Shown piece after piece: positions 337 to 55,128 of a stretch of 64,000 bases of DNA. How positions within the stretch are numbered: the first letter of the stretch is position 1; every line of letters begins with the position of its first letter. The position numbers and the translations under genes are program-made. A model generated the notes under the pieces. It was not told the DNA's origin, did no database searches, and saw only the letters and a program-made list of their open reading frames with translations. The stretch spans positions 42,408-106,407 of the forward strand of contig DATLQK010000026.1 in NCBI GenBank assembly GCA_035535195.1, written 5' to 3'. The DNA is from Gaiellaceae bacterium. GTDB lineage: Bacteria > Actinomycetota > Thermoleophilia > Gaiellales > Gaiellaceae.

Positions 337-539
337 GAATCCTCCTTCCGCGAGGGGTTCGAATGCCTGGCGGGGCGGCAGGTCTTCTGACTCGGGGCGC
401 CCTCCCGATCCGCCTTCCCGGCCGTGGCCAGTGGCAGCGTGGAGCGGGAGCGTCTCCCCTCACAGCGGCGGGACCGTCCCGGACTCGCACCGGGTTCCCT
501 CACCGCCTCGCCTTCTTGTCGGCCCTATGATGGCACGCC

Positions 540-7271: not shown

Positions 7272-7312
7272 CGCTGGACTCTACTCAGCCGGGCCGGACC
7301 CTCCCGCGCGGA

Positions 7313-7344
7313 CATGACGAGTGTCTGACACCCGTCGTGGCTCG
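7313..7344. repeat. REP-like imperfect palindrome (singleton copy of the 34.7-kb repeat family)
   Basis: CATGACGAGTGTC-T-GACACCCGTCGTGGCTCG. The arms ATGACGAGTGTC and GACACCCGTCGT pair over 12 positions with one mismatch and one wobble. It shares the GACACCCGTCGTGG core with the repeats at 34687-34805. It lies in the intergenic gap between the permease and hppA. Confidence 0.5.
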
Positions 7345-7376
7345 TCCAGGCGGTGATCGGGGTCGGCCAGGCGCGA

Positions 7377-9508: not shown

Positions 9509-11596
9509 CTACCTGGCCCGGCCGCGGCTGATGGTGACGCGAACCCTGGCGCCGCGGCGGAGCCGCAGTCCCGGCGCGGGGCGCTGCGCGATCACCCGCC
9601 CGCGTCTGACGCGGCGCGAGTATGCCCTGGCCACCGGGCCCAAGGCACATCCGGCCTTCGCGAGGCGCGCCTTCGCCGCGGCCAGCGTGAGGCCACGAAG
9701 CCGCGGCACAGAGCAGACGGGCTGCACGTTCGTGATCACGAACGGCCCGAGCACCGTCGTCTCGTTCCAGTTCCCGGCGTTGTCGCGGGACCGGATCCCG
9801 AACCACCAGGCGCCGGCGTCGAGCCTGGGGCTCGTCACCCGCCGCGCGCCTTCTTCCGCGTCCTTCACCTGGTCGACGGGGACGAGCGACTGTTTCGCCC
9901 AGCCGTAGGAGAAGCCGTCGAGGCCGCTGAGCGAGTCCGCGAGGGTGATCCAGTTGATCTCGACCGTGTGGTCGGCGGACGCGTACCCGGGCCGGTGCGT
10001 CGGGCTCGAAAGCGTCACGCGGGGCGGTGCGAAAGCGTCGATGAGGAAGGGGCCGGCGTGCACGGGGTCGCTCCAGTTGCCGGCGCCGTCCCGCGCGCGG
10101 ACGTGGAACCAGGTCGTCCCCTCCGGCACGACCGTCGCGTACGACGTCACGTTCTCTTCGACCTCCTTCACCTCGTCGGGCACGAACGAGGGGTCCGGTG
10201 AGACCGCAAAGGAGTACCCGTCGATGCCGCTCGGGTCGACCGCCCCGCCCCAGGAGATGGTGATCGCGCCGTTGTTCGTCCAGACGCCGGGCGTCGGTGA
10301 GGCGGCGGTGATCCCGAGCCCCGTGGGCGGCACGAGCTCCTGCGTCAGCGCGCGGAAGACGTTGACCCGGCCGGCGAAGGCGACCTTGCCCTGCAGCGAC
10401 GCGACCGTGTCGACGCTGTTCGTCAGGCTGCGCTTCAGCTCCACCGGCGTGAGGGAAGGTCGGTAGGCGAGCACGAGCGCGGCCGCGCCCGCGACGTGTG
10501 GGGTCGCCATCGAGGTGCCCTGGAGTGTCGCGTACGGCGTCGGCGGGCTGTCCGAGTAGTACGTGCTGTAGATGCTCTGGCCCGGCGCGGCGACGTCGAC
10601 GCTCGTGGCGCCCCAGTTCGAGAAGCCCGCGAGCGTGTCGTTCGACGCGGTCGCCGCTACGCAGAGGATGTTGTCGGCGAGGTTGCCGCACGGGTACGCC
10701 GGGTTGACGTCGTTGTTGTTCGCCTCGTTTCCTGCGGCGAAGACGAAGAGCGCGCCTGGACAGCGGTTGATCGCGTCCAGGATCGTCTGCGAGTACTCGT
10801 AGCTGCGGAAGCTGCCGTTGATCACCTTCGCGCCGTGGGCGCACGCGAAGTCGAACGCCTGGGCGACGTCGAAGTCGGTCAAGGTCTCGTCGCCGGCGCG
10901 GAGCGGCATCACGCTGACGTCCCAGTTCACGCCCGTGACGCCGACGGTGTTGTTGCCGACGGCGCCGATCGTCCCGGCGACGTGCGTGCCGTGGCCGTTC
11001 GTGTCCATCGGGTCGTCGTCCGGGTTCAGGCCGCCGGCGAAGTTCCAGCCGTGGACGTCGTCGACACGGCCGTCGCCGTCGTTGTCGAGGCCGTCGCCGG
11101 GGATCTCACCCGGATTCGTCCAGATGTTCCCGGCCAGGTCCGAGTGGGTGTAGTCGACCCCCGTGTCCACGACCGCGACCGTCACCCCGGCGCTGCCGGT
11201 CGTCAGGTCCCACGCCTCCGGCGCGTGGATCTTGTTCAGGCCCCAGAGCGTGTTGTCCAGGTACTTCGGGTCGTTCGGTGTCGTCGCCGTCAGCTCGTAG
11301 AGCTGGTTCGGCTCCGCCCACCGCACGTCCGGTCGCCGTTGCAGCGTGGCCGCGGTCGGCTCGACCGACGCGGCCGCGCCGAGACGCACGCGAACGAGGC
11401 CCGGACGGGTCGAGCGCTCGAGGACGCGGACGCCGAGCTCGGCGAGAACCCGGTTCCGCTCTGCCCGTGTCGTCGTCGGCTCGAACCGGACGACGAGCTC
11501 GTGCGCCGCGTATGACGAGGGGTCGGTCCCAGAGGGGAAGGCCGCTCCCGGGAACGCGAGCACGGCCAAGAGCGAAAGTGCGGCAAGACCCCGCAT
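9509..11596 (-). CDS. secreted subtilisin-like (S8) serine protease with I9-like propeptide, two FN3-like modules and a C-terminal PASTA-like domain
   Basis: 695 aa. Signal peptide MRGLAALSLLAVLAFPGAAFP. Catalytic triad blocks VAVVDTGVDYTHSDL, NGHGTHVAGTIGAVGNN, LQGTSMATPHVAGAAALV. Two modules end in ...RARDGAGNWS / SRDNAGNWN. The last 72 aa match the PASTA pattern (VPRLRGLTLAAAKARLAKAGC..G.V...RGRVIAQRPAPG...GARVRVTIS). Confidence 0.85.
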   Translation of the reverse strand: MRGLAALSLLAVLAFPGAAFPSGTDPSSYAAHELVVRFEPTTTRAERNRVLAELGVRVLERSTRPGLVRVRLGAAASVEPTAATLQRRPDVRWAEPNQLYELTATTPNDPKYLDNTLWGLNKIHAPEAWDLTTGSAGVTVAVVDTGVDYTHSDLAGNIWTNPGEIPGDGLDNDGDGRVDDVHGWNFAGGLNPDDDPMDTNGHGTHVAGTIGAVGNNTVGVTGVNWDVSVMPLRAGDETLTDFDVAQAFDFACAHGAKVINGSFRSYEYSQTILDAINRCPGALFVFAAGNEANNNDVNPAYPCGNLADNILCVAATASNDTLAGFSNWGATSVDVAAPGQSIYSTYYSDSPPTPYATLQGTSMATPHVAGAAALVLAYRPSLTPVELKRSLTNSVDTVASLQGKVAFAGRVNVFRALTQELVPPTGLGITAASPTPGVWTNNGAITISWGGAVDPSGIDGYSFAVSPDPSFVPDEVKEVEENVTSYATVVPEGTTWFHVRARDGAGNWSDPVHAGPFLIDAFAPPRVTLSSPTHRPGYASADHTVEINWITLADSLSGLDGFSYGWAKQSLVPVDQVKDAEEGARRVTSPRLDAGAWWFGIRSRDNAGNWNETTVLGPFVITNVQPVCSVPRLRGLTLAAAKARLAKAGCALGPVARAYSRRVRRGRVIAQRPAPGLRLRRGARVRVTISRGRAR

Positions 11597-11628
11597 TCCT
11601 GGGCTATCGCCCGGGATTCGGGCGACCT

Positions 11629-13023
11629 TTAGCGCCGCCGCTTGGGCTTCGGGCAGGCACCGAGCTTGTCACCGTGCCGGCGGTGCTTTCGCACCTGGTT
11701 CTTCCGCACCTTGAGCGTTCGCCCGCGGTGGCAGATCGCCACCCTCGTCACCTTCTTGACGACCTTCTTCTTCACCGGCTGAGGCGAGGCAATCACGGGC
11801 GGCGGCGGTGGCGGACGCGGCGGGGCGAGGCCCGCGCCGACCGCCCGGGCGACGTTCAGACGGCCGCCGGAGACGACCGGTAGAGCGAGCGGATCGACCG
11901 AGCCCAGCAGCGCCGACTTGACCTGCGCGGCGGTGAGAGCGGGATTCCGGCTCCAGACGAGCGCGGCGGCTCCCGCGACGTACGGCGTCGCCATCGACGT
12001 CCCGCTCGCCGAGTAGTAGTCGCCGTCCCTCCAGGTACTGAGGATGCTGACGCCGGGCGCGGCAAGGTCGACCGTCGTCGGGCCGACGTTCGAGAACCAG
12101 GCGAGCGCGTCCGTCGCGTCCGTGGCGGCGACGCAGACGACGTTCGGCTCGGGGTAGGCGCAGGGGAAGCTCGGCAGGGTGTCGTCGTTGGTCGCGCTGT
12201 TTCCGGCGGCGACGACGAACAGTGTCTCCGGGAACGCTTTGATCGCCTCCTCGAGCGCAGGGTCGTTCGGGGCGCCGCCGAGGCTCGCGTTGACGACACG
12301 CGCCCGCGAGGCGGCGTACCTGAAGCCTTCGGCGATCGTCGCCGTCGTGCCACGCCCCGATGAGTCCAGGACCCGGACCGGAAGCAGGCCGACGTTCCAG
12401 TTGACGCCGGTGACGCCTCGGCCGTCGTTACCGACGGCCCCGATGATCCCGGCGACATGGCTCCCGTGGCCGTGCTCGTCCCGCGGATCGTCGTCGTCGC
12501 CGACGAAGTCGTGCCCGCCGGGAACGACGTTCGGCGCCAGGTCGGGATGGTCGGGATCGACACCTGTGTCGGCGACGGCGACGGTGACGGACCGGCTGCC
12601 GGTGCCGGTGTCCCAGGCCGTTGGCGCGCCGATTCGCGCGAGGCCCCAGAGCTCGGCGAACCGGAGGTCGTTCGGGATCACCTGCGCGCGGTAGACGAAG
12701 TTCGGCTGCGCGCCCGCCACATCGGCGCGCAACTCGAACGACCGGACGGCGTCTGGCACGGACGTCCCGTCCGGGAGCCGGACGAGGGCGCTTCGCGGGG
12801 CGGCGAGCCGCTGCTCGAGGCTCGCCCCCTCGGACGCCAGAATCGACGTCTGCCCCGCCGTCCTGAGGCCCGGCTCGAACCGCACGATCAACTCGCCGGG
12901 GACGTACGCCATCGTGACGGAGGCAGCCGGGGCGCCCTGCGCCGCGATCATCGCGGCGCAGACCAGCGCTGAAAATCCAAGCAGCGCGGCGACCCCTCGC
13001 CCCACTTCCCCCATCACTCCCAA
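11629..13023 (-). CDS. secreted S8 serine protease with Pro-rich linker and polybasic Cys/His C-terminal tail
   Basis: 464 aa. Triad blocks VAVADTGVDPDHPDL, HGHGSHVAGIIGAVGND, ASGTSMATPYVAGAAALVWS. The tail reads PPRPPPPPPVIASPQPVKKKVVKKVTRVAICHRGRTLKVRKNQVRKHRRHGDKLGACPKPKRRR. Confidence 0.85.
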   Translation of the reverse strand: MGVMGEVGRGVAALLGFSALVCAAMIAAQGAPAASVTMAYVPGELIVRFEPGLRTAGQTSILASEGASLEQRLAAPRSALVRLPDGTSVPDAVRSFELRADVAGAQPNFVYRAQVIPNDLRFAELWGLARIGAPTAWDTGTGSRSVTVAVADTGVDPDHPDLAPNVVPGGHDFVGDDDDPRDEHGHGSHVAGIIGAVGNDGRGVTGVNWNVGLLPVRVLDSSGRGTTATIAEGFRYAASRARVVNASLGGAPNDPALEEAIKAFPETLFVVAAGNSATNDDTLPSFPCAYPEPNVVCVAATDATDALAWFSNVGPTTVDLAAPGVSILSTWRDGDYYSASGTSMATPYVAGAAALVWSRNPALTAAQVKSALLGSVDPLALPVVSGGRLNVARAVGAGLAPPRPPPPPPVIASPQPVKKKVVKKVTRVAICHRGRTLKVRKNQVRKHRRHGDKLGACPKPKRRR

Positions 13024-13101
13024 GCGTTGCAGCGGGGACGTCGCGTGCCTATAGGCCGACCGACCTATTCGCAGCTAGGCCGGTCCTACCCCGTTCGAGC
13101 G

Positions 13102-15096
13102 CTAGCGCCGCTTCTTCTTCGGCTTGCGGCAGCGGCCGAGCTTGTCCCCATGCTTCCGGTGCTTCTTCACGGCGCTCTTCACGACCTTGATCGTCCGCCC
13201 CCGGTGACAGAGCGTGACTTTGACGACCTTCTTCTTCGCGGGACGCGGCGCGGGCGGCCGAGGCGCCACTGGAGGCGGCGGCGGAGGCGGCGGGAGTGCC
13301 GGAGGTGGAGGCAGAGGCGGAGGAGGCGGCGGCGGAGCCGTCAGCGCGGTGAGTGCCTTGTCTGCGTTCAGCCGACCCGAGGTGGAGACCTCCGTCCCGA
13401 GTGCCGGCTTCACGTCGACCGAGCTCAGGAGCGCGTTTCGCACCTCGTCGACCGTGGCCGCCGGCTTCTTCGCCCACAGCAGCGCAGCCACGCCCGCGAC
13501 ATGCGGCGTGGCCATGGACGTCCCGGCGATGGAGTTGAAGTCGGACGCGTCGTAGCTGGTGCTGAGGCAGCGGACGGTGGCGTCGTCGACATGCACGCCC
13601 TCGTCGTTCACGGAGCCGTCGCTGCGGAGACCGAGGCGGAGGTACAGCGTCGCCGCCCCGTCGAACTCGGAGAGGCTGTCGTCGAACTCGAACCAGGTGT
13701 CGGGATAGCCGATGGTCTCGCCACCCCAAATCGCCGCGTCAGAGAAGGTCGTCCCGTTCGTGGAGCCGCTGATCACGAAGTAGTCGAACGGCCACCCCTC
13801 GGTCTGGAGCTTCATCCAGTACGCGATCTGGCAGCCGAACCGGCCCGACAGGTTGATCGGGTTCACGGTCTGGAACCAGTTGTTCGTACCGAGTGCGTAC
13901 TGCGTCCCCGGCGAGTCGGTCACGCTCCAGGCGCCGAACAGCTTCGACTCCTGGGTCCTTGCCCAGGTGTTCGGCGTGCCGCCGGCAACCCAAGAGCCCG
14001 CTGCCTCGAACCCGTCGCTGAAGACCGAGTCATACGCCGGCCAGGTGCTGAGGATCTCGACACCCGGCGCCGCCAGATCGACGTTCGTCGTGCCGTAGTT
14101 CGAGAACGACGCGAGCACATCGTTCTCGTCCGTCGCCGCGACACAGATCAAGTTGGCAGCGGGGTAGTTGCACGGATAGGTCGGAACCGCGTCGTTGTTG
14201 TTCGCCGCGTTGCCGGCCGCTACGACGAAGAGCGTGTTCGGATGGCCCGAGATCGCGGCGCTCTCCGTCGACGAGAAGCATCCGAACCCCATGCAGCCGA
14301 GGCTCGCGTTGACGACCTTGGCGCCGTGCTCGACCGCCCAGACGTACCCATTCGTGACCGAGGCGGTCGTGCCGCTCCCGTTCGCGTCGAGCACGCGGAC
14401 CGGCATCAGGCTGACGTTCCAGTTGACGCCGCTCACACCTCCGGCGTTGTTTCCTTTCGCGCCGATCGTCCCGGCGACGTGCGTCCCGTGTCCGTTGAGG
14501 TCACGAGGGTCGTTGTCGTTCCCGATGAAGTCCCACCCGGACCCGCGCAGGACGTTGTCGACGAGCTCCGGATGGTCGTAGGCGATTCCTGTGTCCACGA
14601 CGGCGACCACGACGTCCTTGCTGCCCGTCGTCTGCTCCCACGCCTCGGGCGCGTCGATGTCTGCGTCGGGCGTTCCGGCAACGGCGTCGATCTGCTGGCC
14701 CGTGTTGTTCAGGCCCCAGAGCTCGGCGAAGCGCGTGTCGTTCGGGATCCCCTGCGCGTGGTAGATCCGGTTCGGCTCCGCGTACTGGACGTCGGGCGTC
14801 GCCTCGAGCGCTCGAACCGCGGAGTCGACGGAGACGCCGTCCGGCAGCTCGAGGAGCTCTGCGCGGGGAACGAGCAGGAACTGCTTGCGCGTCGCGTCGA
14901 TCGAGTTGACGACGGCGGCGCGCCCGGCCCGGTCGACACCCGCCCTGTAGCGGACGATCAGCTCGCCTGGCACGAACAGCGATTCCGAGTCGCCGCTAGT
15001 CAGTCCATGAGCGGGGCGAACGGCCCCCGAGGCGCCGGCGGCAGCGACCAGAAAGAGTGCGGCCCAGATCCCGATGAGCGCCGCAGCTTTGGCCAT
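13102..15096 (-). CDS. secreted S8 serine protease with ~165-aa insertion before the catalytic Ser, polyproline linker and polybasic Cys/His tail
   Basis: The track ORF 13102..15249 has an improbable N-terminus. The internal ATG at 15096 gives MAKAAALIGIWAALFLVAAAGASGA, a signal peptide. Triad blocks VAVVDTGIAYDHPEL, NGHGTHVAGTIGAKGNN, IAGTSMATPHVAGVAALLWA. The tail reads ...PPPPPPPLPPPPALPPPPPPPPVAPRPPAPRPAKKKVVKVTLCHRGRTIKVVKSAVKKHRKHGDKLGRCRKPKKKRR. Confidence 0.85.
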   Translation of the reverse strand: MAKAAALIGIWAALFLVAAAGASGAVRPAHGLTSGDSESLFVPGELIVRYRAGVDRAGRAAVVNSIDATRKQFLLVPRAELLELPDGVSVDSAVRALEATPDVQYAEPNRIYHAQGIPNDTRFAELWGLNNTGQQIDAVAGTPDADIDAPEAWEQTTGSKDVVVAVVDTGIAYDHPELVDNVLRGSGWDFIGNDNDPRDLNGHGTHVAGTIGAKGNNAGGVSGVNWNVSLMPVRVLDANGSGTTASVTNGYVWAVEHGAKVVNASLGCMGFGCFSSTESAAISGHPNTLFVVAAGNAANNNDAVPTYPCNYPAANLICVAATDENDVLASFSNYGTTNVDLAAPGVEILSTWPAYDSVFSDGFEAAGSWVAGGTPNTWARTQESKLFGAWSVTDSPGTQYALGTNNWFQTVNPINLSGRFGCQIAYWMKLQTEGWPFDYFVISGSTNGTTFSDAAIWGGETIGYPDTWFEFDDSLSEFDGAATLYLRLGLRSDGSVNDEGVHVDDATVRCLSTSYDASDFNSIAGTSMATPHVAGVAALLWAKKPAATVDEVRNALLSSVDVKPALGTEVSTSGRLNADKALTALTAPPPPPPPLPPPPALPPPPPPPPVAPRPPAPRPAKKKVVKVTLCHRGRTIKVVKSAVKKHRKHGDKLGRCRKPKKKRR

Positions 15097-18572: not shown

Positions 18573-18881
18573 TCACAAAGTCGCCTCGCCGGAGTGAGCT
18601 TGTGCGAGCTTTCTGCGGAGGGACTCCGGCTCGACGAAGAACGTGAACGCGCGCTCGCCGTCGATCTCGACGACGGGCAGCCACTCGCGGTACTCGGCCT
18701 CGAGCGCCTCGTCCCCGGAGATGTCCACCTCACGAAGCTCGAACGGTTCCTCCGCCCGGACCCCGGCCAGCACGCGCTTCGCCGCCTCGCAGAGGTGGCA
18801 GCCCGGCGCCGAGTAGAGGACGACCTTCCGCGGCCTCTGGGGCGTCGCTGGTGGTTCGGGGCCGGAGGGCACAGTGCTCAT
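18573..18881 (-). CDS. glutaredoxin-like protein (thioredoxin fold, CxxC)
   Basis: 102 aa. VVLYSAPGCHLCEAAKRVL...EVDISGDEALEAEYREWLPVVEIDGE is glutaredoxin_2/DUF836-like. The annotated ATG lies inside the loop of structured element A, so the true start is uncertain. Confidence 0.7.
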   Translation of the reverse strand: MSTVPSGPEPPATPQRPRKVVLYSAPGCHLCEAAKRVLAGVRAEEPFELREVDISGDEALEAEYREWLPVVEIDGERAFTFFVEPESLRRKLAQAHSGEATL

Positions 18882-18967
18882 GTAGCACGGGCCGGAGAGC
18901 CCCGGGCCGCCAGCGGCGTCAGGCGTCGGCGGAGCCGGGCTTCGCCCGGCGGGAGCCGGCGCCGGCC
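18860..18967. repeat. conserved structured GC-rich intergenic element, copy A (candidate ncRNA or REP-like element)
   Basis: About 108 nt and roughly 85-90% identical by eye to 27378..27484. It folds into GGCC closing pairs, a GUGCU/AGCAC hairpin, a GCCG-NCAG-CGGC hairpin, and a 9-bp + 7-bp stem with a GGA/GGGA internal loop. The copies differ by compensatory changes (see findings). Confidence 0.5.
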
Positions 18968-18978
18968 AGTGGCCGCGG

Positions 18979-20253
18979 TTACGGGTACAGGCCGCGGGTC
19001 AACGTTGCCTCGGCAACCCGCTGGACAGCGAGGCCGTAGGCGGCGATCCGCATCGTCGTCGACTTCGACTCGTACGTCGCCCAGGTCTCGTGGAAGGCGC
19101 GGGAGGTGATGTCGTTCAGCCGCGCGTTCACCTCGTTCTCCTTCCAGAAGTACTCCTGGAGCCCCTGGACCCACTCGAAGTAGGAGACGACGACGCCGCC
19201 GGCGTTGGCGAGCACGTCCGGGAGCAGCATCACCCCGCGGTCCTCGAGGATCTCGTCCGCGGCCGGCGTGGTCGGGCCGTTCGCCCCCTCGACGATCAAC
19301 ATCGCCTTGATCTTGTCGGCGTTCTTGCGCGTGATCACCTGCTCCAGCGCGCACGGCGCCAGGACGTCGGCCTCGAGGAGCAGGAGCTCGTCGTTCGTAA
19401 TCGACTCCGTGTCCTTCAGGCCCTCGAGGCGGCCCGTCTCCTGCTTGTGCGCCAGTGCCAGGTCGACGTCGATCCCGTTCGGGTTGTGGACGCCGCCGTT
19501 GGAGTCGGAGAGCGCGATCACCTTGGCGCCGTCCTCGGCGACGAACTTCGCGTAGTAGCTGCCGACGTTGCCGAACCCCTGAACCGCGACGCGCATGCCG
19601 TCGAGGCTGCGGTCCTGCTTCGCGACCGCCTCGCGCGTGCAGTAGTGCGCGCCGCGGGCCGTCGCCTCGAGGCGTCCGAGCGAACCGCCGAGGTTCAGCG
19701 GCTTCCCGGTGACGACGCCGAGCACCGAATGGCCCTTGTTCATCGAGTAGGTGTCGAAGATCCACGCCATCACGCGCGGGTCGGTCCCGACGTCGGGCGC
19801 CGGGATGTCCTTTTCCGGCCCGATCTCGTTGACGATCTCCGAGGTGAAGCGGCGCGTCATGCGCTCGAGCTCGCTCCGCGACAGCTGCTTCGGGTCGCAC
19901 ACGACCCCGCCCTTGGCGCCGCCGAACGGAATCCCCATCAGCGCGCACTTCCACGTCATCCACATCGCAAGCGCCTTGACCTCGTCGAGGGTGACGTCCG
20001 GGTGGTACCGGATACCTCCCTTCGACGGCCCGCGCGCGATGTTGTGCGTGACGCGGTAGCCCTCGAAGACCTCGATCGTCTCGTTGTCCATGTAGACCGG
20101 GATCGAGACCGAGACCGCCTTCTTCGGCTGCTCGAGCACGCGGATCAGGTTCGGGTCGATCTGGAACGCGTCGGCGACCGTCTGAAGCTGCTGCTGCGCC
20201 AGCTCGAGCGGGTTTTCCTGGAGGTGCGAAATCGGCGGAGCGAGGATCGTCAC
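18979..20253 (-). CDS. gdhA: NAD(P)-dependent glutamate dehydrogenase
   Basis: 424 aa. GPSKGGIRYHP, MTWKCALMGIPFGGAKGG, VAVQGFGNVGS and GANGPTTPAAD are canonical Glu/Leu/Phe/Val dehydrogenase blocks. GTG start with TATACT 9 nt upstream. Confidence 0.92.
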   Translation of the reverse strand: MTILAPPISHLQENPLELAQQQLQTVADAFQIDPNLIRVLEQPKKAVSVSIPVYMDNETIEVFEGYRVTHNIARGPSKGGIRYHPDVTLDEVKALAMWMTWKCALMGIPFGGAKGGVVCDPKQLSRSELERMTRRFTSEIVNEIGPEKDIPAPDVGTDPRVMAWIFDTYSMNKGHSVLGVVTGKPLNLGGSLGRLEATARGAHYCTREAVAKQDRSLDGMRVAVQGFGNVGSYYAKFVAEDGAKVIALSDSNGGVHNPNGIDVDLALAHKQETGRLEGLKDTESITNDELLLLEADVLAPCALEQVITRKNADKIKAMLIVEGANGPTTPAADEILEDRGVMLLPDVLANAGGVVVSYFEWVQGLQEYFWKENEVNARLNDITSRAFHETWATYESKSTTMRIAAYGLAVQRVAEATLTRGLYP

Positions 20254-20273: not shown

Positions 20274-22847
20274 CTAGCGGATCTCGAACGAGACGTTTTG
20301 CCTGCTCGGAGGCCCATCTTCCGGCGGGTAGGCCAACAGCCGGAGCTGGTAGTCGCCCGGCGGAAGCCGTCGGCCGGCGGGGCCGCGCCCGGTCAGGCCG
20401 AAGGTGTATCGGCCCGGCAGCAGGTTGCGGAGGCGGGCGAGCCTGCCGAGGCGCTCCTTCCCGCGGTAGAGCTCGAGATCGAGGTGCGAGAGCGGCAGGA
20501 CCTCGGTCACCCCGTCACGCTCGACGAGCCGCCCGGCGCGTAGCTCGAGCAGCGCCGGCGCCGAGTCCGACGGTCGGAACTTCGTCACCGAGAGGCGGAC
20601 CGACCCGAGGAGGCCGCGCGGTGGAGGCCCGAAGGTAACCGACCACGGGACCTTCACCGCTCGGCCGCCGCCGGCACGGAGCTCGAGCGTCGCCGTCACC
20701 GCGCGCTTCCCGGGCGGGACGTAGGCCAAGCGGCCGGCGAGGAAGACCGCCGCGGCGCCGCCCGGTTCGAGCGTGACGCGTGACGGGGACACCGCGAGCG
20801 CGATGCCGCCCACCTCCCCGAGGTTGCCGACCGAGATGTTCACGGTCAGCCGGCGGCTCGAGAGGTTCCGGACGGCGAACCTCGCCGTCCCCGACCACCC
20901 CCGCCCCCGTGCGTTGCCGAGCGAGAGCGTGGCGGGCTCGGCCACGACCTCGGCGGCCGATGCAGCTCCGAGATCGAGCTGGCCGCCGGGCCCGGCCGTT
21001 CCGGTCAAGGCGCCCTTGAGCGCGGGCGCGTCGAGGTCGGGGCGGTTCTGTGCCAGCAGCGCCGCCGCTCCCGCCACCACCGCGGCCGCCGCGCTCGAGC
21101 CGCTGACGGTGCCGAACGCCGGGGTGCCGTCCTCGCCTCGGCCGGGATGGGAGGTGAGGAGGCCGACACCCGGCGCGTAGAGGTCGGGCTTGGCGCCGCC
21201 GTCGAAGGCGAGCCCGCGCGAGGAGAACGCGGCCGGGCCGCCGGCATTCGGGTTCGACCGGCTGTGTGCCGTGCCGATCTCGACGGTCGCAGGCTCGCCC
21301 TGCGAGAGCAGCCGCTTCGCGGTCGTCGCAACGGCATTGGGAACCGACACGACGGGGATGCCGACCCGCTCATCGAGGCCGAGGCTCCCGGAGGGGATCT
21401 CGGGGCCGTGCAGGACGGCCGCGGCCGCACCGGCTCTGGCCGCCGCAGCCGCGGCAGCGTCCGGGGCGTCACCCCCCGGGGCGAGCGCCGCCTTGCCGGC
21501 CACGCGGCTGTAACCCCGTCGGTCGAAGAAGTCGTCGATCGAGAGCGACGGCGAGCTGTCGCCGAGGACGGCGGGCGGGAGCGGGTGGCGCACGGCCGGC
21601 AGGGCGAGGTCGAGCCGAAGCGGCTTCCGCGGCCCGATCGCTCCTCCCAGAGGGACGTCGTGATCGAACAGAACCCTGAGCCCGGAGCGGACGATCACGC
21701 GAACGTGGTCGACCTGGTCGCGCAGGTCCTCCGCGCCGACGGAGAGCGCGCCGGGCGAGCCGCCCGGGCCCGAGATGCTGCCGTAGACCGGCCCGGCCGG
21801 CCCCTCGTTGCCGGCCGGCGTCACGACGAGCGTGTCGAGCTTGAGCGCGCCCTCCACCGCCCGGGAGGACGGGCTGTCGGCGAAAGCGGCGAACGGCTCG
21901 ACAAACCCGACGAGGGCGATCCGCGCCGCGTCGTGCGCGTTGCCGTCTCCGTCGGGATCGACCGCGCGCTCCAGGCCGGCGATCAGCTGGTCCGTGCGCG
22001 AGTAGACCGTCCAGCGGCCCGCCAGGTCGCGCTGCCAGCCGCCGGCCCTGATCGGCATGATCGTCGCGTTCTGAGCCACGCCGTGCAGGTCGCCCGGGCC
22101 GCCGGAGCCGACGATCAGCCCGCCGAGCTCCGTTGCGTGCCGCTCGCGCTGCGACGCGTCGTCCGGCTTCAGCTTCGCGGCGGCGAAGTCGTCGCGTTCC
22201 AGCAGGTCGGCGCCCTCCTGCACCGCGCCCGTGAGGTAGTCGTGACTCAGCTGGATTCCCGTGTCGATCAGGGCGACCGTGACGCCGCGGCCGCTGGCGC
22301 CCGGGAGCGAGAGCTGCGCGCGGTAGCCCGCGCCGTCTGGCAGCTGGTGCCGGGCGACGAGCGCTGACGAGACTGCCGCCGGATAGGCGATCCGGACGGG
22401 ATAGACGCCCTCGACCTCCGGGAAGCGCTGGAGCAGCGCGATCGCACGTGCGTCGAGGGGCGCGGAGAAGCCCGAGAGGACACGCGTGTAGCTGAACTCC
22501 GGCCGGAGCCTGAGCCCCGCGGCGCCGAGCTGGGCGATCAGCTGCTGCTGCGACGCCTGGGCCGCGTCCTGCCAGCGCCGCTCGTCGGCCTCCGACGCCA
22601 GCCCACCCGCCGCCGCGACGCGGTCGGCAAGCGAGGGCGTCCGCAGCACGACGATCATCCGCTGTCCGACGGGCACCTCCGGCCGCGGGCCGCCGACGAG
22701 GCCGCTCCAGGAGACCCGCTGCGCCAAGGGCCGGCTCGCGTTCCCCTCCGTCGCGGCAGCGACGGACACGACCGTGACGGCCAGGGCGAGGATTCCGAGC
22801 AGTGCGACCTGCGCCAGCCGGCGCTCAGACAAACGCATCCAGCGCAA
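20274..22847 (-). CDS. large secreted S8-family serine peptidase
   Basis: 857 aa. N-terminal signal/TM (LAQVALLGILALAVTVVSVAAA). S8 blocks VALIDTGIQLSHDYL (Asp) and TVSGSSAAAAVVAGAAALL (Ser). Long beta-rich C-terminus. The start may be the second Met at 22838. Confidence 0.75.
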   Translation of the reverse strand: MRWMRLSERRLAQVALLGILALAVTVVSVAAATEGNASRPLAQRVSWSGLVGGPRPEVPVGQRMIVVLRTPSLADRVAAAGGLASEADERRWQDAAQASQQQLIAQLGAAGLRLRPEFSYTRVLSGFSAPLDARAIALLQRFPEVEGVYPVRIAYPAAVSSALVARHQLPDGAGYRAQLSLPGASGRGVTVALIDTGIQLSHDYLTGAVQEGADLLERDDFAAAKLKPDDASQRERHATELGGLIVGSGGPGDLHGVAQNATIMPIRAGGWQRDLAGRWTVYSRTDQLIAGLERAVDPDGDGNAHDAARIALVGFVEPFAAFADSPSSRAVEGALKLDTLVVTPAGNEGPAGPVYGSISGPGGSPGALSVGAEDLRDQVDHVRVIVRSGLRVLFDHDVPLGGAIGPRKPLRLDLALPAVRHPLPPAVLGDSSPSLSIDDFFDRRGYSRVAGKAALAPGGDAPDAAAAAAARAGAAAAVLHGPEIPSGSLGLDERVGIPVVSVPNAVATTAKRLLSQGEPATVEIGTAHSRSNPNAGGPAAFSSRGLAFDGGAKPDLYAPGVGLLTSHPGRGEDGTPAFGTVSGSSAAAAVVAGAAALLAQNRPDLDAPALKGALTGTAGPGGQLDLGAASAAEVVAEPATLSLGNARGRGWSGTARFAVRNLSSRRLTVNISVGNLGEVGGIALAVSPSRVTLEPGGAAAVFLAGRLAYVPPGKRAVTATLELRAGGGRAVKVPWSVTFGPPPRGLLGSVRLSVTKFRPSDSAPALLELRAGRLVERDGVTEVLPLSHLDLELYRGKERLGRLARLRNLLPGRYTFGLTGRGPAGRRLPPGDYQLRLLAYPPEDGPPSRQNVSFEIR

Positions 22848-23784: not shown

Positions 23785-23880
23785 GGGGAAACCATGTTTC
23801 CCCCATGGACCCCCTTCTTCAGCGTTCCGCCGCGGCGCTGCGGAACTAGGGCTCCCGCCGGGCGGAGCCCGGCTCCGCCC
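23785..23880 (-). other. three consecutive hairpins in the rimI-tsaD spacer, including core copy C of the structured element
   Basis: Hairpin 1 at 23785-23803: GGGGAAAC-CAT-GTTTCCCC. Hairpin 2 at 23824-23846: GTTCCGC-(9 nt)-GCGGAAC. Hairpin 3 at 23849-23880: on the minus (operon) strand it reads GGGC-GGA-GCCGGGC-UCC-GCCCGGC-GGGA-GCCC, the same internal-loop hairpin as in copies A and B. Confidence 0.5.
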
Positions 23881-26712: not shown

Positions 26713-27336
26713 CTACAGCTCGGACTTGGCCCAGCCCGGCGCCCAGAACGTGGAGGAGAGCGCGTAGAAGACGACGATCACCGCGTGGAGGATGAACGCT
26801 GCCAGCGGGTTGATGATCGCGACGACGACCGTGCTCAAATACAGCGGCACGCCGGGCAGATACGAGCGCGTGATCCCCTCCACCTCGACCGGGTCGGCGT
26901 CCTCGCGGAGGAGGTGCCCCCAGCGACGGGCGTAGTTCCAGAGGAGGTTGAAGCAGATCGCACAGCCGGTCAGCGCGATGCCGTAGAGGATCACCGCGTC
27001 CCGGGCAGACTCGCCCTCCTCGAGGAAAGCGGCCATCACTTTCGTCGGGTAGGGCACGAAGGCAATACTCATCAGGAGCAGCGTGTTCAGCAGCATGAAG
27101 ATCCGGTCCGTCCGAGCGATGTGGACGAAGATCGTGTGGTGGTTGATCCACATCACGCCGATGGTCAGGAAGCTGATCGTGTAAGCGATCAGCGACGGCC
27201 AGAGGTGGAGGAACGCGTGCCAGAACCCGTCCTCGCCGACGTCGGGAATCGGGAGCTCGAGCACGAGCAAGGTGATCGCGATCGCAATCACCCCGTCGCT
27301 GAAGGTTTCCAGGCGTGCCGTTTCCACCAGCGCCAC
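26713..27336 (-). CDS. TMEM175/DUF1211-family membrane protein (putative K+ channel)
   Basis: 207 aa. [21 protein letters not shown] is the signature first helix. A second repeat reads [19 protein letters not shown]. The start is probably the GTG at 27327, with GGAAAGG 8 nt upstream. Confidence 0.8.
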
Positions 27337-27377
27337 CTTTCCAGTTTCTCGGGCTCAGGAACGGCGCTGGCGGTGCG

Positions 27378-27484
27378 AGGCCGGAGGGGACAGTGCTACT
27401 TGCACGGCCCCGGAGAGCCTCGTGCCGTCAGCGGCGTTAGGCGGCGGCGGAGCCGGGCTTTGCCCGGCGGGAGCTGCCGCCGGC
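27378..27484. repeat. conserved structured GC-rich intergenic element, copy B
   Basis: Aligns with 18860..18967 along its full length. It lies 42 nt from the TMEM175-like start. Confidence 0.5.
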
Positions 27485-27500
27485 CTGTGCCCGAGAAAGG

Positions 27501-27536
27501 TGGCGGGGGCGAGTCTGCGGCCAACTCGACCCCCGC
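27501..27536 (-). terminator. 13-bp GC hairpin, probable terminator of the 43-aa ORF
   Basis: GGCGGGGGCGAGU-(9 nt)-ACUCG-A-CCCCCGCC. On the minus strand it is followed by ACCUUUCUC. It lies 20 nt downstream of the TAA at 27557. Confidence 0.45.
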
Positions 27537-27556
27537 CCTGAGCGCCCAGCCGTTCC

Positions 27557-27688
27557 CTTAGCGCTCGATCTCCACGACGGCGTGCGCCGACTTCAGATAC
27601 TCGAGCTGGAACTCGCCTCCGACCTTGTGACAGTGCAACTTCACGCTGGTCCCAATCGGGAACGCTGAGACGTCGGTACCCGAGCGCA
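27557..27688 (-). CDS. unannotated 43-aa ORF
   Basis: Hand-read: MRSGTDVSAFPIGTSVKLHCHKVGGEFQLEYLKSAHAVVEIER. About 37 of 42 third positions are G/C. An in-frame TAG lies 16 codons upstream with no alternative start, and a strong hairpin follows. It is below the track's length cut-off. No SD was seen. Confidence 0.4.
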
Positions 27689-27797
27689 TAGTGCACGAAA
27701 CGGCGGCTGCCGTCGGTCGCGGCGCGTGACCGCTGGGCTAACCGGCGGCGGGATAGACTGCAACCGGCCCGGTATCCGCAAGGAACTGGAGCGATAC

Positions 27798-34115: not shown

Positions 34116-34601
34116 ACCGGCCAGTTTAGCCGTGGCGGAGGACGCGAACAAGTGTTCGCTCAGCTCCGTTTCGCGGGTTACGCCGGACCACGGCCAGTCC
34201 TGCCAGCGGTCGACGAGGCCGGCACGGACGGGGTTGTCGAGTACGTACTCGATCGCCGCCGCGAGGTGCCTCTCGTCCCGGATCACGCGTGAGGAGAAGC
34301 GTTCGGCGAAGAGGGCGCCGAAGCGCCGATGTCTGGCGTTGTGCTCGCGCGCGTAGTGCCCGTGGAGCCACTGCATCGCGCGGGAGAGCTGCTCCGTGGG
34401 GCCTTCGAGGACCGCGTGGTGGTGGGTCGTCATCAGGCACCAGCACTCGAGCACGAGCCCGAACCGCCGGATCGCCCCGCCGAGGTGGATCAGGAACAGG
34501 CGCCGGTCGACATCGTCCCGGAAGAGCGGCGCTTCGGCGACGCTCCGCGCCGTGACGTGGAAGTAGCCGTCGGGCAGGCTCGACCGAAGCACGCGTCCCA
34601 T
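34116..34601 (-). mobile_element. IS200/IS605-type Y1 (HUH) transposase, REP-associated tyrosine transposase (RAYT)-like; ORF has no stop until 33063
   Basis: MGRVLRSSLPDGYFHVTARSVAEAPLF...LECWCLMTTHHHAVL (HUH-type motif) ...GALFAERFSSRVIRDERHLAAAIEYVLDNPVRAGLV (catalytic Tyr) ...WPWSG. The track shows the frame continuing for 512 aa, across the uvrA start and into uvrA in another frame. Only the first roughly 160 codons look like the family. Confidence 0.7.
34145..34158 (-). promoter_or_regulatory. LexA (SOS) box upstream of uvrA
   Basis: CGAAC-AAGT-GTTCG is a perfect match to the Gram-positive/actinobacterial Cheo-type consensus CGAAC-N4-GTTCG. It lies 31-44 nt upstream of the uvrA ATG. 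A TAAACT hexamer (34123-34128) sits 16 nt downstream of the box and 8 nt from the ATG. Confidence 0.65.
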
Positions 34602-34672
34602 CGGGGTCCAATCCTGTCGCGGCGCCGGCGGCTACGAGACAGGTCGCGCCTGTTCCTTCCCACTTCCGGCAC

Positions 34673-34809
34673 GGCCTCGGCAGCCGCGACCGGTGTCAGA
34701 CACCCGTCGTGGGCCTCGGCAGCCGCGACCGGTGTCAGACACCCGTCGTGGCTGGGCGCGCCTGGCCCTCGCCGGGCACGGCCGGTGTCAGACACTCGTC
34801 ATGGCTCGG
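34673..34809. repeat. REP-like palindromic repeat cluster (2 perfect 39-nt tandem units + 1 degenerate copy)
   Basis: 34673-34711 and 34712-34750 are identical: GGCCTCGGCAGCCGCGACCGGTGTCAGACACCCGTCGTG. Each contains the imperfect palindrome CGACCGGTGTC-A-GACACCCGTCG. The third copy is CCGGTGTCAGACACTCGTCATGG at 34782-34804. The cluster is immediately 5' of the RAYT-like gene. Confidence 0.7.
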
Positions 34810-34836
34810 CGGTGCTGGGCTAAAGAGGACTCGGCT

Positions 34837-48030: not shown

Positions 48031-51000
48031 CTAGACCGCCGGGCTCAGTTGGCCCTGACGCGCACGGGCTCTCCCCGCGGAGACGATGTTGCCCTTCTCC
48101 TCATAGAGGCGGAGAGCCTCCTCGATCAGCACGGCGGCCTCGTCCGGGCGAACCTCTGCGAGAACGGCGAGCGTGTCAGCGCGCAGATTGACGTCGTCGG
48201 TGCCCCCGGCGATCGCGACGGCCTCTCGCGCGAAACGTTCGCCTTCGCCGACGCGTCCCTGGCCGGCGAGCGCCCGCCCTCGCGTCGAGCGCCAGAGAAT
48301 CTGCGAGAGGTAGTCGTCCGGAGACGCGGTCTCCTCGCTGACGTGAGTCAACCGCTCGGCCTCCTCATGGCGGCCCTGGGCGGAGAGCGCCCTCGCCAGC
48401 CTTGCCGCGACCGAGGATCGGTGTCCGGTCTCGCCGGCTTCCGTCAGCGCTTGGAAGCTCTCGGTCAGATACCGCTCCGCGGCGGCGAGATCGCCGGCGA
48501 GCATCTCGATGATCGCGAATCCCTCGCCGGCAGATTGGACGGCTGCGAATGCGCTCCCGACTTCCTCGAACGCCGCTATGTCCTGCCCGATGAGCCTGCG
48601 GGCGGTCGTAAAATCGCCTCGCATCGCGTGTGCACGGGCGAGGAGCGTCAACAGCCGCCGGTGACCTGGTTCGGTCAACTGCTCCGCGTAGGCGAAAAGC
48701 TCATCGAGCGGGTCGGGGCCGTTCAGGAGCGTATTGCCGATCAATCCACGAGACTCGGCCTCGAGAGCCTCGTCCCCGACCGAAAGGGCCTGCGCGAGTG
48801 TCCGCTCTGCGGCGAGCCGCGCCTTAACGTGGTGGCCGCTGAACCACTGGCAGTGCGCCAGTCTCGCCCAGGCGCGCGCTCGTCCGTCCGCGTCGCCGAT
48901 TTCTTCGAAGACCCGGAGCGCCTCGCGGGCCTCCGCTTCGGCGGCTGCCACGCTGAACGCGGGGTCGACGCGCGTCCGAGCGTGGTCCCGATAGAGAACG
49001 GCGTAGCTGCGCGTTCGGCGGTCACCGGCCGCCTCCGCTCGCTCGACTGCCTCGTCGAGGAGCGCGAGCTCTCGCCGGAAGTCGCCGCACAGGCCGACAG
49101 CGCGCGCGAGATCAGGGAGCAGCCGCACCCGCTCGGGGTCGAGCTCGGCGAGGACTGCGACCGCTCGGGAGAGCAGCGCAGCCGCTCCAGGCCAGTCTGC
49201 GCGCGCGGGAGCTCGGCGACCGGCCGCGGCGAGCAAGCTCGCGGCGCGTCGTCCGAGAGCGACCCCGTGCTCGTCGCCAGGCATCAGCTCCTGCCGATAG
49301 CGGGAGGCTTGTTCCAAGTGATAGCCGACGAGCTCGTCGGGCGCGGCCGCCACCTGGTCCAGCCAGTCGGCGTAGAGCTCGTGTGCGCCGATCCGCGACT
49401 CCTTCGTCATCCCGGCATAGGCCACGTCCCGGACGAGGACGTGCTTGAAGCGGAACGCGTCCTCCGAGCCGGATCGCTCGACGAGCAGGAGCCCGCGACG
49501 GACGAGATTCAGCAACCTGGCGTCGACGCCGTTGAGCTCCTCGGGCGGCGTCAACTGAAGGATCGCCTTCCACGGGCATTCCCGGCCGACGACGGCCGCC
49601 CGTTCGAGCAACGCACGCTCCGACCGCTCGATGCGGTCGAGACGGGCGGCCAGGATCGCCTCGACGGAGGGTGGAACGCGGGTCACGGCGTCCGGTCCAA
49701 CCTCGTCGGCGAGCGCGAGGAGCTGCTCCAGGAAGAGCGGATTCCCTTCGGCGATCCGCACGATCCGCTGCCGGTCCCGACTGGGCAGCTCGGCCGGAGC
49801 GAGCTGGTCGAGCACCAGGCAAGCGGCCTCGGGCTCCAACGGCTCGAGCACGAGGCTCTGCCTGCCGGAGCCCCACCTTGGACGCTGCTCGAGGAGCTCG
49901 GGGCGGGCAAGACAGACGAGCAGCAGCGGCGCCTCCGCCGGCCAGGCGGCGAGATACTCGAGGAGATCGAGCAGGGTCGGCTCTGCCCAGTGGACGTCCT
50001 CGAGCGCCACGACCAGCGCGCCCTCCGCCGCCAGCGCCTCGAGGAAGCGGCGGACGGCCCAGAAGATCTCGCCGGTCGAGGCGGCGCCTTCGGCATCGCC
50101 CGTCAGCTGGGTGACGCGCTGTGCGATCACGGTCGCCTGTTCATCCGCGCCGAGGAGGGCGGCAATGGTCTCGGCAGGTCGAGACGGAGCTGCCTCTGCC
50201 ACGATCTCGGCCAGCGGCAGGAACGTCGCACCGTCGCCGTACGCGGCGCACCTTCCGGTCAAGGCCCGTTCGTCCCCGCCGAGCGAGGCGAAGAGCTCGG
50301 ACAGGAGCCGCGTCTTCCCTACGCCTGGGTCGCCCACCACGGTCACGACCCGGCTCCGACGTTCCGCCCGTACGCCGGCAACGGCGGCACGCAGGAAGGC
50401 CAGCTCGTCCTCTCGACCGACGAACGAAGCGTGTCCGAGCGGCCGTGGAACGGTGCCAACCTCGAGCAGGCGGAACGCCTTAGCGTGCCCAAGGGCGCCG
50501 CCGAGGTCCACCCCCTCGATTGCCTCGGCATCGACGGCATACGAGACGAGCCGGTGCGTCGCCTCTCCGAGCAGGATCTCGCCCGGCATGGCCGCCTCCT
50601 CGAGCCGGACGGCGACATTGACGGCCGTGCCGGTCGCATAGGAGCCCTGTGAAGCGGGATCCGCGGCCAGCACCTCGCCCGTGTTGACCCCGACCCGGAT
50701 CTGGAGGAAGGCTGCGGGCTGCTCGCCGTTCACGGCGTCGATCGCATCCCGGAGCTCTCTCGCCGCACGAACGGCCCGGAGCGCATCGTCCTCGTGCACC
50801 GACGGGATGCCGAACGCGGCCATCACCGCGTCCCCGATGAACTTCTCGACGGTGCCCCCGTGCCGCTCGATCACGCGCTGCGCCACCTCGAAGTAGCGGA
50901 GCATGAGGGTGCGGAGCACCTCCGGATCGAGCGACCCTCCGAGCGCGGTCGAATCGACGACGTCGGCGAAGAGGACCGTCACGGTCTTCCGCCGGTCCTC

Positions 51001-51780: not shown

Positions 51781-51872
51781 CCGTTCAATTGAACACCCGA
51801 GTCAGTAGGACTTACAACTCCGGATGAGTGCCGTGTGAGTGCGGTGTGATCGCCGACTGCGACCGTGGACGC

Positions 51873-52043
51873 ATGAGCTTGGCCGAGGAAGCGCAGCGGT
51901 ATCTCGCAGTGGTGGAGGCCTTCCGCGCCGCCGGGTGTGCGCCCCGGTGGCGAGCGGAAGCATGCGGCGACGCCGCCCGGCGGCCTGCGAGCACCGCTGC
52001 GCTGAAGCGGGCCGCCCCACCCGTCCCGAGGAGAAGGCACTAG
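51873..52043 (+). CDS. conserved 56-aa protein S1, partner of regulator copy 1
   Basis: MSLAEEAQRYLAVVEAFRAAGCAPRWRAEACGDAARRPASTAALKRAAPPVPRRRH. It has the same length as the 60716..60886 product, and 18 of the first 26 residues are identical. It is divergent from the regulator. Confidence 0.5.
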   Translation: MSLAEEAQRYLAVVEAFRAAGCAPRWRAEACGDAARRPASTAALKRAAPPVPRRRH

Positions 52044-52106
52044 AAAGCCGGGGAGGGGCCGCGGACGGCGAGCCGGATGCGGCCTCCGGCTCGCCGCATT
52101 CTACGA

Positions 52107-53648: not shown

Positions 53649-53697
53649 GTCGCCGGTTGTAACACAGTTCTGACAGCGGTTCTATCCTCGGTGGCCG

Positions 53698-54537: not shown

Positions 54538-54864
54538 CTCTGTCCTGATCTCCTCGAGCAGGCGCTCGATCCGGTCCGCCTGCGCGGCGAGCCGCTCCGC
54601 CGCACGCTCCAGCTTCCGCGTCGCCGCGTCCGACCCAGCGCGTCGGGGCTCGGGCTCGTCGGACACGAAGTAGCTCAGCGGCTTGCCCGTCGCCTCGGCG
54701 ACGAGACGGAGCACGTCGAGATCGGGTGTCGTCGCCCCACGCTCCCACCGGGAGACCGTGATCGGCTCGACCTCGACCTCTGAGGCGAGCTCTCGCTGCT
54801 TCCAGCCCCTTGCGGCGCGAGCCTGCCGAATCCGACCGCCGAGCTCCGGGTCTCTGGTCGCCAT
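54520..54864 (-). CDS. XRE-family helix-turn-helix regulator with coiled-coil tail
   Basis: 114 aa. LGGRIRQARAARGWKQRELASEVEVEPITVSRWERG is HTH_3-like. C-terminal heptads: RKLERAAERLAAQADRIERLLEEI. TATTCT lies 7 nt upstream of the ATG and there is no SD. Confidence 0.8.
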   Translation of the reverse strand: MATRDPELGGRIRQARAARGWKQRELASEVEVEPITVSRWERGATTPDLDVLRLVAEATGKPLSYFVSDEPEPRRAGSDAATRKLERAAERLAAQADRIERLLEEIRTELARSR

Positions 54865-55077: not shown

Positions 55078-55095
55078 GCCGCCGCCGCACAGTGC

Positions 55096-55125: not shown

Positions 55126-55128
55126 TGT

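Follow-up and report, generated by a model that had tools for sequence, protein, structure and literature searches.

The Rickettsia palindromic elements (RPEs; Ogata et al. 2000) are hairpin-forming, multicopy sequences that lie between genes and also in frame within unrelated housekeeping genes (PMC10969869, PMC3184786), and this in-frame occupation of unrelated genes is regarded as their hallmark (PMC10969869). Among the Actinobacteria, the MIRU (Supply et al. 1997) are repeats of operon spacers whose small open reading frames (ORFs) overlap the flanking genes (PMC3184786).

Here, we analyze two look-alike stretches, copies A and B, in 64,000 nucleotides of a Gaiellaceae genome (referred to below as the window). 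The Gaiellales are abundant soil Actinomycetota that have hardly been studied in culture, and we found no account in the literature of such an element in this order or in the Thermoleophilia. Like the RPEs, it occurs in frame within unrelated genes as well as in spacers. We consider, with a probability of about 0.6, that both copies belong to an apparently undescribed, Gaiellales-specific family of selfish, non-autonomous structured repeats of the RPE/ERIC/MITE kind. A preliminary description of copies A and B had left the choice of whether they are a new structured RNA or belong to the structured repetitive extragenic elements; the repetitive option is the one favored here, while "extragenic" was too narrow a term, given the copies found inside coding sequences.

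Two copies of a three-helix element in the window

Copies A and B align with 82% identity over 146 nt (blastn, 18831-18975 versus 27350-27493, E value of 6e-36), an alignment also obtained with MAFFT, and the sequence outside them is unrelated and non-alignable, as had been noted at the outset for the flanks. The unit had been delimited as 108 nt (18860-18967 for copy A), which turned out to be only part of it, since similarity and fold extend to the limits given in Table 1. On the plus strand, both copies fold into three helices, namely P1, which closes the structure, the long hairpin P2, and the second hairpin P3, with the same minimum free energy of -112 kcal/mol (z scores of -6.7 and -7.7), whereas the minus strand gives weaker values of -85 and -90 kcal/mol. 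P2 and P3 are alike in plan, each with a basal stem, a GGAG-type internal loop, and an apical stem, and the P3 hairpin has the consensus GCCGGGC-UUY-GCCCGGC in the two window copies. The P1 arms of copy B are UCUCGGGC-U-CAGG, paired with CCUG-U-GCCCGAGA.

The alignment of 95 sequences described below bears out the GUGC/GCAC apical hairpin, the 9-bp stem (the basal stem of P3), and the GCCGGGC/GCCCGGC hairpin with its GGA/GGGA internal loop, all of which had been proposed from the two copies. The C-G/G-C swap reported for the stem enclosing the apical hairpin also covaries across the family (CG in 43 sequences and GC in 35). A fifth feature, the small GCCG-NCAG-CGGC hairpin, was a misreading; its bases form the 3' arm of the ca. 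22-bp helix of P2, whose 5' arm (18841-18863) lies upstream of the position at which the first delimitation began (18860) and was thus missed.

A search with the covariance model R1, built from the family, found exactly two full copies and one solo P3-type hairpin in the 64-kb window. A weak blastn similarity at 20341-20387 was rejected as a further copy, since it corresponds to the coding sequence of a peptidase gene and reaches only 8.7 bits with the model. With Rfam 15 and gathering thresholds (cmscan), the sole match in the whole window was a cobalamin riboswitch at 360-522 and no family was assigned to the element, in agreement with the earlier failure to match it to any riboswitch or small RNA class. 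A search of 18700-19100 in E-value mode returned only noise (≤18 bits).

Table 1. Positions of the element copies, their helices, and adjacent genes in the window (CM, covariance model)
Feature	Position	Strand	Description
Copy A, full element (P1+P2+P3)	18828..18978 (151 nt)	+	CM R1 135 bits, E 5e-27; fold; aligned with 94 other copies
Copy A, P1 5' arm	18828..18840	+	CCGCGGCC-U-CUGG; partner 18966-18978
Copy A, P2	18841..18920	+	ca. 22 bp; GGAG/GGAGAG internal loop; apical GGGC..GUGC-loop-GCAC..GCCC
Copy A, P3	18922..18963	+	9-bp basal stem; GGA/GGGA internal loop; GCCGGGC-UUC-GCCCGGC
Copy A, P1 3' arm	18966..18978	+	CCAG-U-GGCCGCGG; directly abuts the gdh stop codon (18979-18981)
Copy B, full element	27347..27496 (150 nt)	+	CM R1 152 bits, E 2e-30; fold
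Copy B, helices	P1 27347-27359 with 27484-27496; P2 27360-27438; P3 27440-27481	+
Solo P3-type hairpin (partial/modular copy)	23848..23880	-	GGGCGGAGCCGGGCUCCGCCCGGCGGGAGCCC; CM R1 30.9 bits, E 6e-5, model positions 106-138; inverted repeat
Glutaredoxin-like gene	18573..18881	-	ATG 18881-18879 in the apical loop of P2 is the one available start
Glutamate dehydrogenase gene (gdh)	18979..20253	-	upstream neighbor of copy A in gene orientation; Pfam ELFV_dehydrog in syntenic loci
TMEM175/DUF1211-like gene	26713..27336	-	start 10 nt from copy B, opposite strand; PF06736 on the syntenic gene of L122

Family collection and covariation

Further copies were gathered by scanning one genome per GTDB species for exact matches to the 18-mer GGCCGGAGGGNACAGTGC, which gave at least 116 loci. 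Among those listed, ca. 21 are chance matches in unrelated taxa and 95 carry the element. At least 93 further full-length copies are found among the matches listed, from ca. 82 assemblies labeled as Gaiellaceae, Gaiellales, Gaiella, Thermoleophilia, or unclassified Actinomycetota MAGs, and these 93 scanned copies were aligned together with copies A and B (n = 95). The 18-mer sits in P2, so that the invariance of that segment is an ascertainment artifact and the set is biased toward intact copies. The element is ca. 150 nt long with a G+C content of ca. 75%. When the fetched loci were searched with R1, the extra copies comprised a few more full ones together with P2-only, P3-only, and P1+P3 forms, and only two loci (L073 and L102) hold two adjacent copies. 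The density can be roughly estimated at one copy per 100 kb, i.e., tens of copies per genome. No copies of the element were found in collections of plasmids, phages, and viral contigs, where the lone viral match to the 18-mer was a chance one, and a metagenome scan with a site A-specific pattern gave 0 matches.

The consensus structure of the 95 sequences has 54 to 57 pairs. Paired cells amount to 93.2%, compared to 75.5% in column shuffles and 36 to 44% when the partners are slid, and double-sided changes occur in 44 of 57 pairs, with all 13 pairs of P1 covarying across the family. The covariation score is 0.446 (0.137 in shuffled alignments), a value reached by none of 500 shuffles; covariation, proposed at first from two sequences, is thus overwhelmingly supported. 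Tandem G.U pairs are conserved between alignment columns 46-47 and 98-99. Stem cells read on the plus strand contain 393 G.U against 42 A.C combinations, a ratio of ca. 9:1, which indicates that the fold belongs to one strand.

Gain, decay, and probable co-option at orthologous sites

The neighborhood of copy A (DUF2520, UDG, tsaE/B, rimI, tsaD, peptidase S8, gdh, glutaredoxin-like gene, and rex) is syntenic in nine fetched relatives. The site between gdh and the glutaredoxin-like gene (site A) carries the element, each time in antisense orientation, in the window and in five of them (L120, L121, L123, L124, and L125), and it is empty in the other four (L117, L118, L119, and L122), with a spacer of 92 nt in L117 and ≤15 nt in the rest. 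In the occupied sites, conservation is confined to the half of the element read as protein from the opposite strand, while the other half decays: P3 carries insertions of 46 nt in L120 and ca. 65 nt in L123, its apical hairpin is lost in L125, and the 3' arm of P2 has diverged in L123.

In relatives lacking the element at this site, the glutaredoxin-like protein has 81 to 88 amino acids, starting in L119 with a GTG 15 nt past the gdh stop codon. The window has lost that GTG, and the one start left in frame is an ATG of the P2 loop, so that residues 1 to 19 (MSTVPSGPEPPATPQRPRK) of the 102-amino-acid protein are encoded by the opposite strand of copy A. The 102-amino-acid form with the element-derived N terminus is found in ca. 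25 homologue clusters, and the six orthologous site A copies do not differ in the 7-nt loop that holds the ATG, while loops are variable elsewhere in the family. Copy A would have landed between the gdh stop codon and the glutaredoxin-like gene, removing the start of the latter. Judging from the lost GTG, the sole ATG in the loop, the distribution of the longer form, and the conservation of the loop, it is most likely that translation now begins inside P2 on the opposite strand and that one half of copy A has been recruited to encode protein.

At site B, full copies are present in the window, L001, L028, and L037, while L121 has a P1+P3 variant without P2 and L120 a partial copy. The flank of L122 is nearly identical to that of the window, and all that this locus retains are the two outer P1 arms (CTCGGGC-CTGT-GCTCGAG), a remnant left by a microhomology-type deletion. 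Elsewhere, L035 and L108 were unusable as an empty-site pair, given that L108 carries an 818-amino-acid gene there. Some syntenic copies hold the fold through compensatory changes (the window compared to L121, and L001 compared to L028), an observation that is also compatible with a host-level function.

Genomic context of the copies

Genes were called with a GC-frame scorer, and the orientation of the element was compared with that of its neighbors. Among the matches listed, 34 copies have the orientation of both flanking genes, 33 are opposite to both, 12 lie between convergent genes, and 10 lie between divergent ones; 49.9% of the coding bases in these loci are on the strand of the element. 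The flanking genes are diverse (e.g., nuoH/nuoI, or pstB and its downstream gene), few copies are syntenic, and neither a transposase nor another partner gene recurs consistently near the copies among the flanking genes of the fetched loci. Mixed orientation and functionally diverse neighbors led us to reject a riboswitch or other cis-regulatory leader. Gaps to the neighboring genes are often ≤5 nt, and the flanks hold 0.1 bits per column, which leaves no room for dedicated promoters; on the same grounds, an independent small RNA gene with its own promoter and terminator was discarded.

A domesticated cis-acting mRNA element might nevertheless act in translational coupling, sequester a ribosome binding site or start codon in P1, or serve as a processing or stabilizing site for RNase III or RNase E. 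Such a role would suit the precise placement of copies between cotranscribed genes, the P1 3' arm that holds the downstream start (CGUGAG) in tight junctions, and the persistence of certain syntenic copies across species with compensatory changes, and RNase-mediated effects are known for some ERIC and Correia copies (PMC10969869). However, one copy in two runs antisense to the host mRNA and shows the same plus-strand bias of G.U over A.C (7.3:1 in copies sense to host genes and 13.3:1 in antisense ones); with the bias equally strong in both, the fold is a property of the element and not of the host mRNA. The copies that lie within coding sequences or separate convergent or divergent genes, the decay of orthologous copies, and the lack of a common function among neighbor genes also speak against this role, which we regard as unlikely.

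Less probable still is a family of trans-acting structured non-coding RNAs, for instance a protein-binding or sponge RNA working through four GGAG-type internal-loop motifs. The very strong covariation, the conserved purine-rich internal loops and tandem G.U pairs, the strand specificity of the fold, and a stability far above that of shuffled sequence would all be expected from such an RNA, but the short gaps leave no space for promoters or terminators and the flanks are unconserved. Random orientation, in-frame copies within genes, the existence of partial, modular copies, and the decay of orthologous ones are further points against it.

Ends of the element and candidate mobilizing enzymes

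The outer arms of P1 are the least conserved helix of the element (0.6 bits per column, compared to 0.8 to 1.2 in the other stems), differ between copies A and B, and follow only a weak consensus, CCUCRCG...CGYGAGG. In classical MITEs, by contrast, the terminal inverted repeats (TIRs) are the best conserved part, a difference that counts against a selfish repeat. Direct repeats at the ends are modestly enriched (mean longest common substring of 4.2 nt, compared to 3.83 ± 0.09 for the null), the clearest ones spanning 7 to 10 nt (L021, GCGGGTTCA; L053, TGAGGCT). We found no target-site duplication of fixed length at the ends, the direct repeats being weak, 4 to 10 nt long, and variable in position, and no fixed flanking motif (tetranucleotide) was seen there. 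A parent insertion sequence or other autonomous parent element was not found either. The missing linked transposase, autonomous parent, and canonical fixed target-site duplication are likewise points against a selfish repeat.

In several copies, one arm of P1 is native host sequence and the other its inverted complement. The 3' arm of the ferrochelatase copy (CGCGAGG) encodes the native R-E-D, the 3' arm at RTGA junctions (CGTGAGC) holds the start and second codons of the downstream gene, and for the L064 copy, one arm shows homology to AddA coding sequence that is native in L023. These host-derived arms may reflect complementarity-guided target choice, target-templated inverted duplication, or later selection for a closing helix. 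It is conceivable, if improbable, that a folded single-stranded (+) intermediate was inserted with its 5' end complementary to host sequence beside its 3' end, a mechanism that would be new for bacterial repeats. The 5' end would then have served as a guide, or the target would have been copied inverted during insertion; in both cases, every copy would gain its own closing helix, made in part of native host sequence. Insertion of this kind would explain the copy-specific, sometimes native-coding P1 arms, the variable length of the direct repeats, and a strand-specific G.U bias that is independent of host transcription.

Mobilization of a REPIN/PATE-like element as folded single-stranded DNA by an HUH Y1 enzyme (RAYT or the TnpA of IS200/IS605), with P2 and P3 bound by a transposase dimer, is also consistent with a strand-specific fold with G.T-type wobbles that does not depend on the direction of transcription, and with the common architecture of P2 and P3. 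The window encodes a RAYT-like Y1 transposase (34185-34601), whose gene is 47% identical to a PF01797-bearing gene of L119; homologues occur in L119 and L060. However, the Y1 genes have REP-like palindromes of their own that differ from the element, namely GGTGTCAGACACC for the window gene and GGGTCTGGCTTNAGCCAGACCC on both sides of the one in L060. The repeat beside the window gene (CGGTGTCAGACACCCGTCGTGG; 34671-34815, inverted copy at 7299-7351) belongs to a family other than that of the element, and the gene was rejected as a partner on this account. The Y1 genes of the window and L060 have the appearance of common REP/RAYT systems, each specific to its species and without relation to the element. 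The lack of a fixed flanking tetranucleotide and the presence of an outer inverted repeat and direct repeats, atypical for IS200/IS605, also make this route quite doubtful. Element orientation gives no signal against GC skew (r = -0.002 ± 0.002), in genomes where the skew is too weak to inform (per-locus standard deviation of 0.018, near the sampling noise of 0.013).

Bridging ORFs and in-frame copies

Tight junctions, with co-directional genes and both gaps ≤20 nt, harbor 32 copies, and in 20 of them an ORF of 51 to 52 codons bridges the two genes through RTGA overlaps with the upstream stop and the downstream start, with the element in either orientation. Eleven further copies lie inside continuous ORFs, and the hosts are genuine genes. 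A ferrochelatase with a copy aligns in two blocks with HemH of Bacillus subtilis (E value of 8.5e-58), 47 query residues replacing 4 of the solved chain, and a protein of the histidinol-phosphatase/IMPase family compared with 5YHT (E value of 3.7e-59) shows 50 inserted residues at a position spanned by 4 in the solved chain. In-gene copies thus add ca. 50 Gly/Ala/Pro/Ser-rich residues at sites that are 4-residue gaps in solved homologues. Pfam domains were detected on both sides of the insert in two AddA-like helicases, a DEAD/MrfA-type (MrfA/Lhr-like) helicase, and ScpA, and in a histidine kinase the insert falls within the GAF domain. From the sequences, the two AddA insertions are independent, with opposite orientations, sites ca. 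7 codons apart, and different P1 arms, and an in situ inversion was discarded on account of the last two features. An exhaustive protein search added ThiF, UDG, and GAF hosts and several annotated ORFs of 52 to 64 amino acids; peptide searches for hosts gave few matches, their yield being restricted by low complexity and clustering.

Among the translated copies, frames differ, both strands are read, and no peptide is conserved. The initial argument that the length differences rule out coding therefore stands as regards a conserved peptide and fails in that many copies are translated as read from the ORFs, one example being, most likely, half of copy A in the glutaredoxin-like gene. Stop codons in the element are not rarer than in shuffled sequence, so selection for a stop-free design was rejected and the tolerance is attributed to G+C richness together with selection against disruptive insertions. 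Length selection specific to the context was rejected as well, since the core modes of 130 and 133 nt (both 1 mod 3) are not restricted to tight junctions, and the frame property is thus intrinsic to the family. A conserved small protein-coding gene, as the ORFs of 51 to 54 codons annotated over some copies would suggest, is effectively refuted by frames and strands that change with the context, loop-length indels that are not multiples of three, stop codons no rarer than in shuffled sequence, and substitutions that keep base pairs and not codons.

Mode of spread and significance

A selfish repeat is favored over an RNA gene or riboswitch by the dispersed, multicopy occurrence, the random orientation, the presence/absence and decay at orthologous sites, and the in-frame copies. 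The element is spread over many unrelated loci in either orientation, filling short spacers, and it is gained or lost from one close relative to another while old copies decay. It persists in operon junctions and genes because a GC-rich sequence seldom has stop codons and can be read through. The conserved fold of the plus strand, G.U pairs and purine-rich internal loops included, may be recognized by a putative trans-acting machinery, presumably in the form of a single-stranded intermediate, either single-stranded DNA or RNA. The stems would covary among active lineages because propagation needs the fold, whereas resident copies would drift, decay, or become co-opted. The most interesting leads are the strand-specific covariation that is independent of host transcription and the copy-specific, partly host-derived closing helices.

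If this is correct, selfish DNA of the RPE type in proteins is not confined to reduced intracellular genomes. Real proteins are altered by the element, with 50-residue inserts in ferrochelatase, the histidinol-phosphatase/IMPase-family protein, AddA, and a GAF domain, and the glutaredoxin-like protein appears to have gained a new N terminus and start codon from it. Small annotated ORFs and N-terminal extensions derived from the element are annotation artifacts or exaptations, and covariation-based screens could easily mistake it for a new riboswitch or small RNA. To our knowledge, the mechanism by which RPEs propagate is still an open question, and the unusually constrained, strand-specific fold described here sets concrete, testable limits on the propagation of such elements.

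Comparison with known repeat systems

The Gaiellales element is short, non-autonomous, and multicopy and shows presence/absence variation, like a classical MITE, but it does not have the target-site duplication of fixed length. With ERIC and Correia (CREE) sequences, which are imperfect palindromes of 100 to 200 bp found in transcribed intergenic regions in either orientation, it also shares the tens of copies per genome (a rough estimate in our case) and the presence/absence polymorphism. However, these elements have well-conserved TIRs and a TA target duplication, in contrast to the weak P1 and the direct repeats of 4 to 10 nt seen here, and the Gaiellales element has no evident promoter or IHF site.

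The likeness to MIRU resides in the ORF ends that overlap the flanking genes, as in 20 of the 32 tight junctions. MIRU, however, are tandem (VNTR) units of 40 to 100 bp, while the Gaiellales element has 150 nt, is mostly single at each site, possesses a covarying strand-specific fold, and occurs in both orientations and also inside genes. REP/REPIN-RAYT systems resemble it as persistent GC-rich imperfect palindromes recognized (presumably so in the Gaiellales element) through a single-strand fold, and the solo P3 (33 nt) is REP-sized; the Gaiellales element differs in that it is not clustered at the RAYT-like genes, which are flanked by other, species-specific palindromes.

The RPEs come from AT-rich alphaproteobacteria and the present element from Thermoleophilia with 70 to 75% G+C, so that no sequence relationship is expected and the two are compared by description. 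The Gaiellales element differs in being a three-helix junction with extensive strand-specific covariation and in lacking a conserved peptide, several frames and both strands being read. In both cases, nonetheless, a hairpin repeat of ca. 100 to 150 bp occupies spacers and, in frame, unrelated genes whose products tolerate the added peptide segment.

Repeats and genes accompanying the element

The hairpin that follows copy B of the ~150-nt element has a near-identical counterpart in L122, a relative syntenic with the window neighborhood, and a similar one in another fetched locus (L005), and it is probably the terminator of the conserved 43-codon ORF. In four loci from other genomes (L001, L028, L031, and L037), the 3′ flank of the site-B element carries a very short Cys/Gly-rich ORF on the opposite strand, its end adjoining the element; the product may be a metallothionein-like peptide.

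Two fetched loci carry element copies side by side. The pair in L073, whose first copy has a truncated P3, arose by a tandem duplication of the element plus 25 nt of flank. Within the window, paralogous genes recur as diverged repeats at 10581-14539 and 49870-58461 (60 to 78% identity throughout), one set having three copies ca. 1.5 to 2 kb apart and the other two copies 7.1 kb apart. Unlike that of the syntenic relative L121, the uracil-DNA glycosylase (UDG) gene of the window has no intein insert.

Features of the window and of related loci
Locus	Positions	Strand	Feature	Remarks
Window	360-522	-	Cobalamin riboswitch	Rfam RF00174, 86.7 bits, match over full length
Window	27497-27545		GC-rich hairpin (GGCGGGGGCGAGT...ACTCGACCCCCGCC)	Between copy B and 43-codon ORF
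Window	27558-27689	-	Small conserved ORF	43 codons
Window	34185-34601	-	RAYT/IS200-like Y1 transposase gene	47% identity to PF01797-bearing gene of syntenic relative L119
L060	352-483, 729-1106, 1215-1414		Palindrome clusters and homologous Y1 transposase gene	
L073	7379-7699		Element pair	Two copies side by side
L102	374-723		Element pair	Two copies side by side
L121	838-2529		UDG gene carrying intein with LAGLIDADG endonuclease	PF14890/PF03161

Beside the window Y1 transposase gene lie three REP-like units in tandem (CGGTGTCAGACACCCGTCGTGG, 34671-34815); a copy in inverted orientation is present at 7299-7351, at a distance of 27 kb. Gene and units together look like a REP/RAYT system, separate from the ~150-nt element. 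In the fetched locus L060, clusters of three and four copies of the palindrome GGGTCTGGCTTNAGCCAGACCC, which differs from the window unit, stand on either side of the Y1 gene; this is the layout of a classic RAYT with REP clusters, the REPs being species-specific.
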